Shown: positions 1 through 41,079 of the stretch, piece by piece
How positions within the stretch are numbered: position 1 is the stretch's first letter
Layout: the number at the start of each line of letters is the position of its first letter
Source: a virus
Taxonomy: Duplodnaviria; Heunggongvirae; Uroviricota; Caudoviricetes
Strand: one strand, 5' to 3'
Length of the DNA: 41,079 bases
Virus record (IMG/VR): IMGVR_UViG_2778261579_000010
Span: 1-41,079 of that record
The notes under the pieces: generated by a model
Told to the model about the DNA's origin: nothing
Database searches by the model: none
What the model saw: only the letters and a program-made list of their open reading frames with translations
Program-made: the position numbers and the translations under genes

Positions 1-933
1 ATGGACAACGACAAAATTGATCAACACAGCGACGAAATTGAAGTTGAGAGCGAAGAAAAAGAGCGCGGCAAAAAAATAGAAATAGATGAAGACCGACTCC
101 CCTCCCGGGCGATGGCAATTCATGAGCATATCCGCCAGGATGGTGAAAAAGAGCTGGAACGCGACGCAATGGCACTACTGTGGTCAGCCATTGCGGCGGG
201 TCTGTCGATGGGCGCTTCATTACTGGCAAAAGGGATATTTCATGTCGAACTGGAAGGTGTGCCGGGCAGCTTCTTGCTGGAGAATCTCGGTTATACCTTT
301 GGTTTTATTATCGTCATTATGGCCCGCCAGCAATTATTTACCGAAAACACCGTGACTGCGGTACTACCCGTCATGCAAAAACCGACAATAAGCAACGTTG
401 GCTTACTTATGCGGTTATGGGGCGTCGTGCTGCTGGGTAATATTCTCGGGACAGGTATTGCGGCGTGGGCATTTGAATATATGCCAATCTTCAATGAAGA
501 AACTCGCGATGCATTTGTCAAAATCGGCATGGATGTGATGAAGAACACCCCCAGCGAGATGTTTGCCAACGCGATCATTTCCGGCTGGCTGATCGCCACT
601 ATGGTTTGGATGTTTCCTGCAGCGGGTGCGGCAAAGATTGTGGTGATTATATTGATGACCTGGCTTATTGCCCTGGGTGACACCACTCACATCGTTGTCG
701 GTTCTGTTGAAATCCTCTATCTGGTGTTTAACGGTACGCTGCACTGGAGCGATTTCATCTGGCCCTTCGCACTACCTACTTTAGCGGGGAACATCTGCGG
801 CGGCACCTTTATCTTCGCGTTAATGAGTCATGCACAGATCCGTAACGACATGAGCAACAAGCGCAAAGCAGAAGCACGCCAAAAAGCAGAACGTGCGGAA
901 AACATTAAGAAAAATGATAAAAACCCGGCATAA
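1..933 (+). CDS. yfdC: Formate/nitrite-transporter-family inner membrane protein YfdC (host gene flanking argW)
   Basis: 310-aa ORF; near-identical over its whole length to E. coli YfdC as recalled; multiple hydrophobic helices; sits immediately upstream of tRNA-Arg as in K-12. Confidence 0.9.
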   Translation: MDNDKIDQHSDEIEVESEEKERGKKIEIDEDRLPSRAMAIHEHIRQDGEKELERDAMALLWSAIAAGLSMGASLLAKGIFHVELEGVPGSFLLENLGYTFGFIIVIMARQQLFTENTVTAVLPVMQKPTISNVGLLMRLWGVVLLGNILGTGIAAWAFEYMPIFNEETRDAFVKIGMDVMKNTPSEMFANAIISGWLIATMVWMFPAAGAAKIVVIILMTWLIALGDTTHIVVGSVEILYLVFNGTLHWSDFIWPFALPTLAGNICGGTFIFALMSHAQIRNDMSNKRKAEARQKAERAENIKKNDKNPA

Positions 934-1008: not shown

Positions 1009-1083
1009 GTCCTCTTAGTTAAATGGATATAACGAGCCCCTCCTAAGGGCTAATTGCAGGTTCGATTCCTGCAGGGGACACCA
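1009..1083 (+). tRNA. argW: tRNA-Arg (anticodon CCU), prophage attachment tRNA
   Basis: 75-nt cloverleaf: acceptor GTCCTCT, T-arm GCAGG-TTCGATT-CCTGC, anticodon loop CCTCCTAAG, 3' ACACCA; matches argW as recalled. Confidence 0.85.
1069..1083 (+). repeat. attL core (CTGCAGGGGACACCA) at the tRNA 3' end
   Basis: Exact 15-bp direct repeat with 39376..39390; the next base differs (T here, G at the right end). Confidence 0.8.
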
Positions 1084-1196
1084 TTTATCAGTTCGCTCCC
1101 ATCCGTAGCAGTCCGCAAAATCCCCTGAATATCAAGCCTTCCGTAGATTCACAGTTCGTCATGGTTCGCGTCAGATCGTTGACAGCCGCACACCAT

Positions 1197-1246
1197 GACG
1201 GGTAAAAAGTGGATAAAATAATTTTACCCACCGGATTTTTACCCAT
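1197..1246 (+). promoter_or_regulatory. Candidate integrase arm-type sites (GGGTAAAA / TTTTACCC motifs) in attL
   Basis: Three copies of the motif within 50 bp just upstream of int (cgGGTAAAAag, aaTTTTACCCac, tTTTTACCCat); the same motif recurs twice near attR. Confidence 0.3.
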
Positions 1247-2402
1247 GCTCACCGTTAAGCAGATTGAAGCAGCAAAGCCGAAAGAAAAACCATACCGCCT
1301 TCTCGATGGTAATGGCCTGTACCTTTATGTCCCTGTATCCGGGAAAAAGGTATGGCAGCTTCGCTACAAGATTGACGGTAAGGAAAAAATACTGACCGTA
1401 GGAAAATATCCGCTAATGACTTTGCAGGAGGCAAGAGATAAAGCATGGACCGCGAGGAAAGACATCTCGGTTGGCATCGATCCGGTAAAAGCGAAAAAGG
1501 CTTCGTCTAACAACAATTCCTTTAGTGCGATTTACAAGGAATGGTACGAGCACAAGAAGCAAGTCTGGTCAGTAGGCTATGCAAACGAACTTGCCAAAAT
1601 GTTTGACGACGACATTTTACCCATCATCGGCGGCCTTGAAATTCAGGATATTGAGCCGATGCAACTGCTGGAAGTAATCCGCAGATTTGAAGATCGCGGT
1701 GCAATGGAGCGAGCCAACAAAGCCCGCAGAAGATGCGGAGAGGTTTTCCGTTACGCTATTGTCACCGGAAGGGCTAAATATAACCCGGCACCTGACCTTG
1801 CAGACGCCATGAAAGGATACCGCAAGAAGAACTTCCCGTTTCTTCCTGCAGACCAGATCCCGGCATTCAACAAAGCACTGGCAACATTTTCAGGAAGTAT
1901 CGTATCGCTTATTGCGACTAAAGTTTTACGCTACACCGCCCTAAGAACGAAAGAACTTCGTTCCATGCTATGGAAGAACGTCGATTTTGAAAACAGGATT
2001 ATCACCATCGACGCCAGTGTGATGAAGGGTCGCAAGATTCATGTAGTACCGATGTCAGACCAGGTAGTTGAACTTCTCACTACGCTAAGCTCAATCACCA
2101 AACCAGTATCAGAGTTTGTTTTTGCCGGGCGCAACGATAAGAAGAAGCCAATCTGCGAGAACGCGGTGCTACTTGTGATCAAACAAATCGGCTATGAGGG
2201 TCTGGAAAGCGGTCACGGATTCAGGCATGAATTCAGTACGATTATGAACGAGCACGAATGGCCTGCTGACGCTATTGAAGTGCAACTTGCACATGCCAAC
2301 GGCGGATCTGTGCGCGGGATTTACAACCATGCTCAGTATCTCGATAAGCGCAGAGAAATGATGCAGTGGTGGGCGGATTGGCTTGATGAAAAGGTGGAGT
2401 GA
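1245..2402 (+). CDS. intS: Tyrosine recombinase, P4-family prophage integrase (IntS-like)
   Basis: ORF directly downstream of argW; N-terminus MLTVKQIEAAKPKEKPYRLLDGNGLYLYV and C-terminal HGFRHEF...H..Y catalytic region typical of P4-type integrases; the first ATG gives 385 aa (an in-frame GTG at 1209 would add 12 codons). Confidence 0.9.
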   Translation: MLTVKQIEAAKPKEKPYRLLDGNGLYLYVPVSGKKVWQLRYKIDGKEKILTVGKYPLMTLQEARDKAWTARKDISVGIDPVKAKKASSNNNSFSAIYKEWYEHKKQVWSVGYANELAKMFDDDILPIIGGLEIQDIEPMQLLEVIRRFEDRGAMERANKARRRCGEVFRYAIVTGRAKYNPAPDLADAMKGYRKKNFPFLPADQIPAFNKALATFSGSIVSLIATKVLRYTALRTKELRSMLWKNVDFENRIITIDASVMKGRKIHVVPMSDQVVELLTTLSSITKPVSEFVFAGRNDKKKPICENAVLLVIKQIGYEGLESGHGFRHEFSTIMNEHEWPADAIEVQLAHANGGSVRGIYNHAQYLDKRREMMQWWADWLDEKVE

Positions 2403-33824: not shown

Positions 33825-33973
33825 TTGACGCGTATTTTGAAGATGGGAATCAAAACATCAGTGGATGGGAGCCAAGCATGCCAGATGGAGAAGGATGGTT
33901 TGTCGGTTCGATTCACGATACAGAAGACGGTCCGATCTGCGTTTGGTTCAGGAATGTAGATAAGGCCGAATAG
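33797..33973 (+). CDS. Small acidic early-left ORF (58 aa), overlapping the previous ORF in another frame
   Basis: Not in the supplied track; MENDNNQTVIDAYFEDGNQNISGWEPSMPDGEGWFVGSIHDTEDGPICVWFRNVDKAE; weak RBS; ends inside a terminator hairpin. Confidence 0.4.
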   Translation: MENDNNQTVIDAYFEDGNQNISGWEPSMPDGEGWFVGSIHDTEDGPICVWFRNVDKAE

Positions 33974-38557: not shown

Positions 38558-38712
38558 TGATGGCGTTGGTGGAACCGAAAGAATAAAAAAGCACTGGCAT
38601 TGGATTCGTTTTACGAAGCATTCAATCTTAACAGTCTTCAGCCTGGTTCTGTCATTGTAGTCACCACTCAAAGCGGCATGACCATTCAGACTCATAAACC
38701 AAAAGAGGGAAA

Positions 38713-38802
38713 ATGATGTGGCCTATATGTGTTAATTGCGGACGGATGTGCCTATCTGGATGGTGCCGAAAGTGCGACAAATGCACGAAGAAAAGACAAT
38801 AA
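38713..38802 (+). CDS. Small Cys-rich zinc-ribbon-like ORF (29 aa)
   Basis: Not in the supplied track; MMWPICVNCGRMCLSGWCRKCDKCTKKRQ; AGAGGGA RBS; paired CxxC motifs. Confidence 0.35.
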   Translation: MMWPICVNCGRMCLSGWCRKCDKCTKKRQ

Positions 38803-38874
38803 CAATCCTCGCACTCGCGGGGATTTCTTTTATCTGAACTCGCTACGGCGAGTTTTGTTTTATGGAGATGATAA

Positions 38875-39042
38875 ATGCACTTCCGAGTCACAGGTGAATG
38901 GAATGGAGAACCATTCGACAGGGTTATCGAAGCAGAGGACATCAATGACTGCTATAACCACTGGATGCTGTGGGCGCAGATAGCACATGCAGAAGTAACC
39001 AATATTCGAATTGAAGAACTGAAAGAACACAAAAACGCCTGA
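38875..39042 (+). CDS. Small hypothetical protein (55 aa) at the prophage right end
   Basis: Not in the supplied track; MHFRVTGEWNGEPFDRVIEAEDINDCYNHWMLWAQIAHAEVTNIRIEELKEHKNA; GGAG RBS; followed by a terminator. Confidence 0.45.
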   Translation: MHFRVTGEWNGEPFDRVIEAEDINDCYNHWMLWAQIAHAEVTNIRIEELKEHKNA

Positions 39043-39058
39043 TGGCGGTTTTTTTTAT
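39031..39058 (+). terminator. Rho-independent terminator
   Basis: Short hairpin CGCC-TGAT-GGCG followed by TTTTTTTTAT. Confidence 0.45.
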
Positions 39059-39066
39059 TGCCTGAT

Positions 39067-39082
39067 TTGCAGGTTCGATTCC
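39067..39082 (+). repeat. 16-bp copy of the argW T-arm segment (TTGCAGGTTCGATTCC) upstream of torI
   Basis: Identical to 1054..1069 of the tRNA; together with attR it reproduces the last 30 nt of argW, split by about 293 bp. Confidence 0.7.
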
Positions 39083-39101
39083 CTATTCGGAGATAGCACT
39101 C

Positions 39102-39302
39102 ATGCAACACGAACTACAACCTGATTCACTGGTTGATTTGAAATTCATCATGGCCGATACTGGCTTCGGTAAAACCTTCATCTACGACCGGATTAAGTCC
39201 GGCGACCTGCCAAAAGCCAAAGTTATCCACGGGCGAGCAAGATGGTTATATCGTGACCATTGTGAATTCAAAAATAAGCTCTTAAGCCGCGCCAATGGGT
39301 AA
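39102..39302 (+). CDS. torI: Excisionase / recombination directionality factor TorI (AlpA-Xis family)
   Basis: 66 aa MQHELQPDSLVDLKFIMADTGFGKTFIYDRIKSGDLPKAKVIHGRARWLYRDHCEFKNKLLSRANG; matches TorI of KplE1 as recalled; sits next to attR. Confidence 0.85.
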   Translation: MQHELQPDSLVDLKFIMADTGFGKTFIYDRIKSGDLPKAKVIHGRARWLYRDHCEFKNKLLSRANG

Positions 39303-39319
39303 AATAGCGGGTAAAATAT
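39297..39319 (+). promoter_or_regulatory. Tandem GGGTAAAAT motifs near attR (candidate Int/TorI binding sites)
   Basis: TGGGTAAAATAGCGGGTAAAATATT contains two direct copies; the same motif recurs three times in attL. Confidence 0.35.
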
Positions 39320-39375
39320 TTCTCACATCTAAAAAACACCATTCCAATCAATCCCCTGCCGCTTCAAGTAGATGT

Positions 39376-39390
39376 CTGCAGGGGACACCA
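39376..39390 (+). repeat. attR core (CTGCAGGGGACACCA)
   Basis: Exact 15-bp repeat of the tRNA 3' end (1069..1083). Confidence 0.8.
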
Positions 39391-39831
39391 GATACCCTTC
39401 TAACAATATCTACCTTCACCCCGTAAAAGATGGGTTTGGCAGCACACTTGCCCTATATCTACTCATTTTTACTGCAACAGGTTGAAATCTCAGCACTGTC
39501 AGAAAGCGCTGATGACTAAACAGCCCTGGGCCGGGCGATGTAACCATCATACAGAATCCTGATAGCGAAATATGGCGTGACTCGATACTTCACTCTGCAA
39601 TGCATTCCTTGATGAATTCGCAGGCCCGTGATACTCGGGACAGGTCGCTGAATGACGACAATGTCCTGGAAATCAGCGAACCGCGTATCCGGAGTACATT
39701 TGAGCGACTGTACCAGAACATGAATGAGGCGTTTGGATTAGGTGATTATTAGTTGGGCTAAGCATTTTTGTATTATTATTTTCCGGTTGAGGGATATGGA
39801 GATATCGACAACAACCGGAAAAAGTTTACGT

Positions 39832-41079
39832 CTATATTGCTGAAGGTACAGGCGTTTCCATAACTATTTGCTCGCGTTTTTTACTCAGGAAGAAAATGCC
39901 AAATAGCAACATCAGGCAGACAATACCCGAAATTGCGAAGAAAACTGTCTGGTAGCCTGCGTGGTCAAAGAGTATCCCAGTCGGCGTTGAAAGCAGCACA
40001 ATCCCAAGCGAACTGGCAATTTGAAAACCAATCAGAAAGATCGTCGACGACAGGCGCTTATCAAAGTTTGCCACGCTGTATTTGAAGACGGATATGACAC
40101 AAAGTGGAACCTCAATGGCATGTAACAGCTTCACTAATGAAATAATCCAGGGGTTAACGAACAACGCGCAGGAAAGGATACGCAACGCCATAATCACAAC
40201 ACCGATAAGTAATGCATTTTTTGGCCCTACCCGATTCACAAAGAAAGGAATAATCGCCATGCACAGCGCTTCGAGTACCACCTGGAATGAGTTGAGATAA
40301 CCATACAGGCGCGTTCCTACATCGTGTGATTCGAATAAACCTGCATAAAAGACAGGAAAGAGTTGTTGATCAAAAATGTTATAGAAAGACCACGTCCCCA
40401 CAATAAATATGACGAAAACCCAGAAGTTTCGATCCTTGAAAACTGCGATAAAATCCTCTTTTTTTACCCCTCCCGCATCCGCCGCTATGCACTGGTGATC
40501 CTTATCTTTAAAACGCATGTTGATCATCATAAATACAGCGCCAAATAGCGAGACCAACCAGAAGTTGATATGGGGACTGATACTAAAAAATATGCCGGCA
40601 AAGAACGCGCCAATAGCATAGCCAAAAGATCCCCAGGCGCGCGCTGTTCCATATTCGAAATGAAAATTTCGCGCCATTTTTTCAGTGAAGCTGTCAAGCA
40701 AACCACATCCCGCCAGATACCCCAGGCCAAAAAAGAGCGCCCCCAGAATTAGACCTACAGAAAAATTGCTTTGCAGTAACGGTTCATAAACGTAAATCAT
40801 AAACGGTCCGGTCAAGACCAGAATGAAACTCATACACCAGATGAGCGGTTTCTTCAGACCGAGTTTATCCTGAACGATGCCGTAGAACATCATAAATAGA
40901 ATGCTGGTAAACTGGTTGACCGAATAAAGTGTACCTAATTCCGTCCCTGTTAATCCTAGATGTCCTTTCAGCCAAATAGCGTATAACGACCACCACAGCG
41001 ACCAGGAAATAAAAAAGAGAAATGAGTAACTGGATGCAAAACGATAGTATGCATTTCTGAATGGAATATTCAGTGCCAT
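39832..41079 (-). CDS. cscB: Sucrose:H+ symporter CscB (LacY-family MFS permease)
   Basis: 415 aa, 12 predicted TM helices; N-terminus MALNIPFRNAYYRFASSYSFLFFISWSLWWSLYAIWLKGHLGLTG matches CscB as recalled; start codon is the last triplet of the window. Confidence 0.85.
   Translation of the reverse strand: MALNIPFRNAYYRFASSYSFLFFISWSLWWSLYAIWLKGHLGLTGTELGTLYSVNQFTSILFMMFYGIVQDKLGLKKPLIWCMSFILVLTGPFMIYVYEPLLQSNFSVGLILGALFFGLGYLAGCGLLDSFTEKMARNFHFEYGTARAWGSFGYAIGAFFAGIFFSISPHINFWLVSLFGAVFMMINMRFKDKDHQCIAADAGGVKKEDFIAVFKDRNFWVFVIFIVGTWSFYNIFDQQLFPVFYAGLFESHDVGTRLYGYLNSFQVVLEALCMAIIPFFVNRVGPKNALLIGVVIMALRILSCALFVNPWIISLVKLLHAIEVPLCVISVFKYSVANFDKRLSSTIFLIGFQIASSLGIVLLSTPTGILFDHAGYQTVFFAISGIVCLMLLFGIFFLSKKREQIVMETPVPSAI

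Follow-up and report, generated by a model that had tools for sequence, protein, structure and literature searches.

Organization of the argW integration module

The stretch of DNA analysed here, 41,079 nt long and referred to as the window, belongs as a full-length prophage to the KplE1/HK620/Sf6/CUS-3 group and has a duplicated core, a P4-type integrase gene beside attL, torI beside attR and five TorI pentamers between the core and the -35 box of intS. It carries the IntS-TorI module known from KplE1, HK620 and Sf6 through the studies of Panis, Ansaldi and co-workers, and shares with these phages the core, the position of intS by attL and of torI by attR, the pentamers before the intS promoter and the GGGTAAA arm repeats.

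At the left end, ARAGORN identified argW, encoding tRNA-Arg(CCT), as the integration target (1009..1083, plus strand, as for all strand-specific features below). It is the only tRNA gene in the window, and no second, hidden tRNA gene was detected by the same program. The T-arm segment of argW (end of the variable loop, 5' T-stem, T-loop and CC; 1054..1069) is at the same time the left, B-type half of attB, which abuts the crossover region. The attL core CTGCAGGGGACACCAT at 1069..1084 is the 16-nt core published for KplE1 (PMC2951348). It is followed by five TorI-type pentamers at 1091..1178 (GTTCG at 1091, GTCCG at 1111, GTTCG at 1154, GTTCG at 1164 and GATCG at 1174), in the layout of the five TorI sites reported on attL before the intS promoter, whose pentamers are GTTCG, GTCCG and GATCG (PMC2951348). 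The -35 box TTGACA of intS (1179-1184) lies where this array ends, and intS itself (1245..2402) encodes a P4-type integrase with the domains Arm-DNA-bind_3, Phage_int_M and Phage_integrase.

At the right end, the last gene of the upstream module is a 55-aa ORF (38875..39042), a homologue of lambda p35 and 434 ORF55. It runs into a weak intrinsic terminator, seen in sequence and fold as a hairpin CGCC-TGAT-GGCG followed by a T run (39036..39056), which is annotated in HK140 and is common to lambdoid phages with other integration modules. The stem has 4 bp of G+C here against 5 bp in Sf6 and HK620; the terminator reads on both strands and was missed by a consensus terminator scan.

The gene torI (39102..39302), encoding the excisionase or recombination directionality factor, has a Shine-Dalgarno sequence GGAG (39089..39092) that is conserved in the leader alignment, and its product matched PDB 1Z4H (Tor inhibition protein) over all 66 residues with E=6.6e-43. 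Two direct GGGTAAAATA repeats (39297..39318) are integrase arm-type sites of the P arm according to their TAAA motif (PMC2951348), and they are invariant among relatives. A perfect 8-bp inverted repeat, TCCCCTGC and GCAGGGGA (39352-39359 and 39378-39385, 18 nt apart), pairs P-arm DNA with the core, and its left arm (CAAtCCCCTGC) is kept in nearly all relatives. The sequence GATGTC-TGCAGGG-GACACC (39371..39389) is an imperfect inverted repeat around 7 bp; because this layout is usual for two core-type sites around an overlap region, we infer that it probably consists of the C site, the overlap region and the C' site. The attR core CTGCAGGGGACACCA lies at 39376..39390, and the core duplication at the 3' end of argW is 15 nt here, the 16th base being different at attR.

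A 43-aa ORF (39295-39426), homologous to HK620 hkaB and Sf6 gene 17, crosses the att core, so that integration would alter its C-terminus; it is probably no real gene. The edges of the window (1-933 and 39832-41079) coincide exactly with the start codons of the flanking host genes, which encode a protein of the formate/nitrite transporter family and an oligosaccharide/galactoside MFS permease; on the right, K-12 and UTI89 have a dsdC flank instead.

A second copy of the argW T-arm before torI

In a search of the whole window, TTGCAGGTTCGATTCC was found only within argW at 1054-1069 and upstream of torI at 39067..39082, even when two mismatches were allowed, and CTGCAGGGGACACCA was found only at 1069-1083 and 39376-39390. 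These results confirmed the first-pass annotation, which had noticed that 16 nt of the T-arm reappear before torI and that the att core is repeated at attR. A chance origin of the 16-mer repeat was rejected, with none of 100 shuffled sequences giving two matches and with an arithmetical expectation of about 2e-5 for a chance 16-nt match in 41 kb. The copy upstream of torI is genuine and tRNA-derived, and its source is the T-arm of argW. Together the two pieces at the right end cover the final 30 nt of argW (1054-1083), sharing one base, C1069, and 19 nt separate the end of the 16-mer from the torI ATG. GGTTCGATT also occurs at 33905, within a coding region, which we judged to be a chance occurrence. 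The conserved core of the copy, GTTCGATTCC (39073-39082), is called the T-loop box here; the G of its GTTCG stands 29 nt before the torI ATG.

It had been proposed that the tRNA homology of the phage is interrupted by torI. The repeat is real and comes from the tRNA as proposed, but the idea of a split homology is not matched with the relatives. In phages of Erwinia, Serratia, Citrobacter-type hosts, Pantoea and others, attP to the left of the shared core reads (A/G)(A/G)TTCGATGTA|TGCAGGGGACACCA, and the junction at the left core site is TTCGATGTA|TGCAGGG, in which imperfect T-loop homology is retained. Since attP of the relatives keeps its own T-loop homology by the core, the upstream 16-mer is an additional copy and no displaced half. 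Only in E. coli do the pieces break at exactly C1069 and so tile exactly; in L014 and L017 the match of the upstream copy to the T-arm extends through ...CCTG, and in the Edwardsiella group (L020-L022) it comprises the whole T-arm hairpin plus one extra C. We also built two synthetic junctions, one of the phage context with the contiguous 31-nt tRNA end and one of the 5' part of the tRNA with the torI leader. The unsplit junction was found in none of 5,426 complete E. coli genomes and nowhere in IMG/VR, and the deletion junction in none of the 5,426 genomes. The box is not the missing half of attP; it is a further copy of the left (B) half of the target in the chromosome, namely of the 10-16 bp of the tRNA T-arm abutting the 7-bp crossover region TGCAGGG.

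The module maps in PMC2951348 and PMC3509656 do not mention a T-arm copy before torI, and the torI promoter is called uncharacterised (PMC2951348). A 135-bp attR, within which integrase and IHF sites were mapped (PMC2951348, PMC3509656), suffices for excision in vitro, and its left primer CTCTTAAGCCGCGCCAATGG (PMC3509656) maps to 39279-39298 of the window. As this attR starts at 39279 and the T-arm copy lies 200 bp further left, the copy is unneeded for excisive recombination in vitro, and it is unlikely that the box has an essential role in the recombination reaction.

Conservation of the box in two excisionase families

Relatives of torI were gathered from species-representative genomes, IMG/VR and public assemblies. 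GTTCGAT stands at -29, -28 or -26 from the ATG in 19 of the 31 distinct TorI variants, with a degenerate copy in one more, and the box-bearing variants belong to at least seven genera (loci of E. coli, Erwinia, Serratia, Citrobacter-type hosts, Pantoea, Edwardsiella and Hafnia). The consensus is GTTCGATT(C/T)CC, often with CAG(G) before it, about 29 nt upstream of the excisionase ATG. An alignment of related argW prophages, which the first-pass annotation had named as a check, showed that the core of the box is kept across 19 lineages. In this alignment GTTCGATT and the next C-C are invariant or nearly so, and mean pairwise identity is 0.3-0.5 in the flanking leader columns and 0.61 at four-fold degenerate codon sites, for lineages that are related to each other and were picked for the presence of GTTCGAT. 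Within the near-identical E. coli set, changes in the 16-mer are singletons and flanking polymorphisms are common.

Erwinia-type phages (L006, L128, L129, L132) have two tandem boxes 16 nt apart, at about -42 and -26 from xis, and one contig (L125) has two copies 13 nt apart, the second of which is GTTCGATTACC. There are also apparently intact argW phages without the box (L016, L292-L300), whose leaders resemble non-argW ones, as if a segment of about 25 nt with the box had been lost or never gained. It means that the element is dispensable. All TorI relatives that were found, to identities as low as about 60%, target argW, and the second family described below has the same target. In Proteus (L025, 2992-4567, and L212), a 62-aa torI homologue lies convergent to int beside argW; the box is absent there, the T-arm of argW is ACAGGTTCGATTCCTGT, and GTTCG repeats follow the tRNA.

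A profile search across 1.8 billion representatives showed the TorI family to be small. Through its distant member P0100 (about 40% identical) we reached 80 viral loci (L222-L301), and P0095 yielded none. The gene order and the argW core of this second family are the same as in TorI modules. Its integrases are 56-70% identical to IntS, with the core-binding domain best conserved between the families (68-70%, against 56-59% for the others), and its arm-type repeats are GCGGGCATAA, unlike those of TorI modules. GTTCGATT is present at -29 in 28 of 38 second-family excisionase variants; the T-stem part (CAGG) of the box is not conserved in this family. The P' arm carries four to six GTTC[GTC] repeats in one subgroup and, in another (L283, L285, L289), four RTTACC repeats with no GTTCG, an apparent switch of excisionase DNA specificity within the family. 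The box is identical in both subgroups, which means that it does not follow the specificity of the excisionase. It is kept when excisionase and arm sites are changed, and so, like the core, it is locked to the tRNA sequence. This conservation across genera and two excisionase families, and the independence from excisionase specificity, seem to be new.

Context of the torI leader

The box of many lineages is preceded by an intrinsic terminator and followed by the Shine-Dalgarno sequence. The module of ORF55 and terminator is also present in lambdoid phages that integrate by unrelated modules (HK140, 434, mEp213); there, (GCCT)GGAG and the next gene come immediately after the terminator. The box was not found in the xis leaders of non-argW modules (HK140, 434, mEp213, lambda-type and SfX-type). 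Mosaic joints flank it on both sides: homology to KplE1 of K-12 begins at about 39052, 15 nt upstream of the box, and homology to lambdoid ORF55 ends at about 39054-39064. Leaders of L015 and L028 in one excisionase family are identical with those of L272 and L274 in the other, and the identity of the L015 and L272 leaders indicates that leaders were exchanged horizontally between modules, which inflates the apparent conservation. Possible origins of the box are an older att site, an aberrant joint made by integrase and a small insertion between "GCCT" and "GGAG".

No sigma-70 promoter was predicted in 38600-39500 by the promoter scan. Among 15 diverse leaders there were 0 consensus base pairs, the leader of the window folds no better than shuffled sequences (z = -1.3), and Rfam gave only sub-threshold, terminator-like matches (STnc420, STnc130, isrK), which fall on the terminator hairpin. 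As neither a conserved RNA structure nor a sigma-70 promoter is found, the constraint lies on the primary sequence. The box is tRNA-derived, fixed in position, conserved in primary sequence and specific to argW excisionase-attP-integrase modules.

Possible readers of the box

The reading that we tentatively prefer is that the box mimics the left half of attB, is bound by integrase and modulates torI expression. Its sequence (39073-39082) equals 1060-1069, which stands directly 5' of TGCAGGG in argW, and by the inverted-repeat layout GATGTC-TGCAGGG-GACACC this sequence adjoins the overlap region immediately in attB. Conservation of the box in both families, the core-binding domain as the best conserved part of their integrases and the lack of a box in non-argW modules also speak for this reading. 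The bases copied are those of attB which the core-binding and catalytic domains of the integrase must recognise; for this reason a mimic bound by integrase appears the likeliest explanation, and since the target and these integrase domains are the only partners common to all modules, it would also be the most economical one.

Lone core-type sites are bound weakly by lambda Int. The box before torI is followed by CTATTCGGAG and has no TGCAGGG, so that it would be at best a lone half-site. It resembles the core-type sites of lambda (C, C', B, B') in being an attB half-site sequence that abuts the overlap region in the target, but unlike them it is solitary, at a distance of about 300 bp from the core and without an adjoining overlap region; to our knowledge, an isolated B-type site of this sort is not part of the lambda paradigm. 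Other observations also speak against an integrase-bound mimic. The real left core site (C) varies much among relatives whereas the box is nearly invariant, which is odd for a single reader, and with CAGG unconserved in the second family the conserved part is mostly generic T-loop. The box is outside the 135-bp attR that recombines in vitro (PMC3509656), some phages that look intact do without it, and its conservation is inflated by the horizontal exchange of leaders and by the choice of members through GTTCGAT.

It seems unlikely, although the idea has good precedent, that the box is an operator at which TorI binds GTTCG in the leader and represses its own gene. P4 Vis, 186 Apl and P2 Cox repress their own promoters, and their operators are likewise short sites before the excisionase gene, where the box of TorI-type modules has an excisionase pentamer. 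The box lies just upstream of torI, occurs in tandem in some Erwinia-type phages, and contains at 39073-39077 the GTTCG that was mutated in the five mapped attL sites (PMC2951348). However, GTTCGATTCC is unchanged in the modules whose P'-arm repeats are RTTACC without any GTTCG, the invariance runs 3' of the pentamer (ATT-Y-CC) with flanks unlike the TorI consensus aGTTCGc, and the tandem boxes are spaced by 16 or 13 bp and not by the 10 or 20 bp of the mapped sites. In contrast with the operators of Vis, Apl and Cox, the box remains constant when the excisionase-site motif changes, and it matches the target tRNA. Of the three options offered in the first-pass annotation, a functional Int or TorI binding element fits the conservation across genera best as far as a functional element is meant; its TorI part is weakened by the RTTACC modules.

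Rather improbable in our view is an RNA element, single-stranded in the 5' UTR of torI and recognised by a factor of the host, for example Rho, a ribonuclease, the ribosome or an enzyme that binds tRNA. The distance from the box to the Shine-Dalgarno sequence and ATG is fixed, and the box is expected to be part of the transcript, as no promoter was predicted from the terminator to torI. Menouni and co-workers (2013) reportedly observed read-through expression of torI under Rho inhibition. Against this stand the lack of predicted pairs in the 15 leaders, the unexceptional fold of the window leader and the limitation of the box to argW modules, which is unlike a generic signal for translation or termination.

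We give little credit to a functionless fossil, left by an older att site or by the capture of torI into contiguous tRNA homology. The sequence is clearly tRNA-derived, the two pieces tile the tRNA in E. coli, and the match extends into the 3' T-stem in L014, L017 and L020. [quoted passage not shown] But a core of 8-10 nt is invariant where neighbouring leader bases and synonymous sites are heavily substituted, the unsplit intermediate is absent from the 5,426 E. coli genomes and IMG/VR, and attP has its own T-loop homology beside the core.

Just as little credit is due to a linker at the module boundary, kept as a short homology for exchange between phages. It would agree with the mosaic joints on both sides, with one leader being joined to two excisionase families and with the boundary sequence bsq2 that the Sf6 record names in this region. 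The invariant part of about 10 nt is nevertheless too short for efficient homologous exchange, and the identity to the target tRNA would be left unexplained.

The HK620 record marks TTGCCTGATTTGC as a cII-binding site within a 39-nt "phage integration" promoter, and the Sf6 record copies this promoter label as "pI". That the box belongs to a CII-activated PI promoter is very improbable. The place is the same as that of the lambda-type PI/CII site, just upstream of the excisionase ribosome-binding site, and phage 434 has a true TTGC-N6-TTGC PI site at this relative position before xis. In the window, however, the half-sites are spaced by N5 instead of N6, and the scan gave no promoter-like site with its hexamers. 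Relatives keep GTTCGATTCC but neither the TTGC half-sites nor the supposed -10.

Finally, the CUS-3 record (CP000711) tags exactly TTGCAGGTTCGATTCC, a direct repeat at both prophage ends, as "attL core" and "attR core" and ends there; that this 16-mer is the actual crossover we regard as practically ruled out. UTI89 and many other chromosomes contain DNA that matches the final 909 nt of CP000711 at 100% identity, and they run on into torI and the usual core CTGCAGGG(G)ACACCA, so that the record is simply cut at the repeat. A recombinant junction through the 16-mer is found neither in the 5,426 E. coli genomes nor in IMG/VR, and the published core and in vitro substrates use the other repeat (PMC2951348, PMC3509656). 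In our window, too, the 16-mer recurs at both prophage ends but is no boundary of phage and host, as torI and the mapped core lie beyond it. The box is not a crossover site.

Missing from the CUS-3 record (L001/L002) are torI, the P arm and the true attR; UTI89 (L005, 2390-2700) has them directly after the repeat. The attR core of UTI89, CTGCAGGGACACCA, about 70 nt past the torI stop, has three G and not four; this 1-bp deletion in the presumed overlap region might lock the CUS-3-type prophage in place.

A possible control of torI by integrase

If the box is an attB mimic read by integrase, the protein would bind between the upstream terminator and the torI ribosome-binding site, where it could hinder read-through transcription into torI and attP. 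Alternatively, bound integrase could loop out torI, or the box may be placed to affect torI translation. A bridge might also form between integrase at the box and the arm-type repeats at the torI 3' end. The outcome would be a control from integrase to excisionase that complements the published repression of intS by TorI, and the element would modulate without being essential. It is a possibility, though a doubtful one, that integrase reading the box and gating the excisionase forms a reciprocal circuit, or that the functional attP is about 330 bp long and encloses the excisionase gene.

The site had been marked in GenBank before, and these labels need correction: the "att core" of CUS-3 is wrong and cuts torI and attR from a reference record, and the "PI/CII" label of HK620 and Sf6 is unsupported. 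The control of torI is an acknowledged missing piece for the KplE1/HK620/Sf6 family, and the box is a candidate control site, being short, strongly conserved, a copy of the target and located at the ribosome-binding region. Silence of the excisionase and the ratio of integrase to excisionase decide the stability of the lysogen. If the proposed reading is true, the published repression of int by the excisionase and the new gating of the excisionase by integrase would together make a closed circuit.
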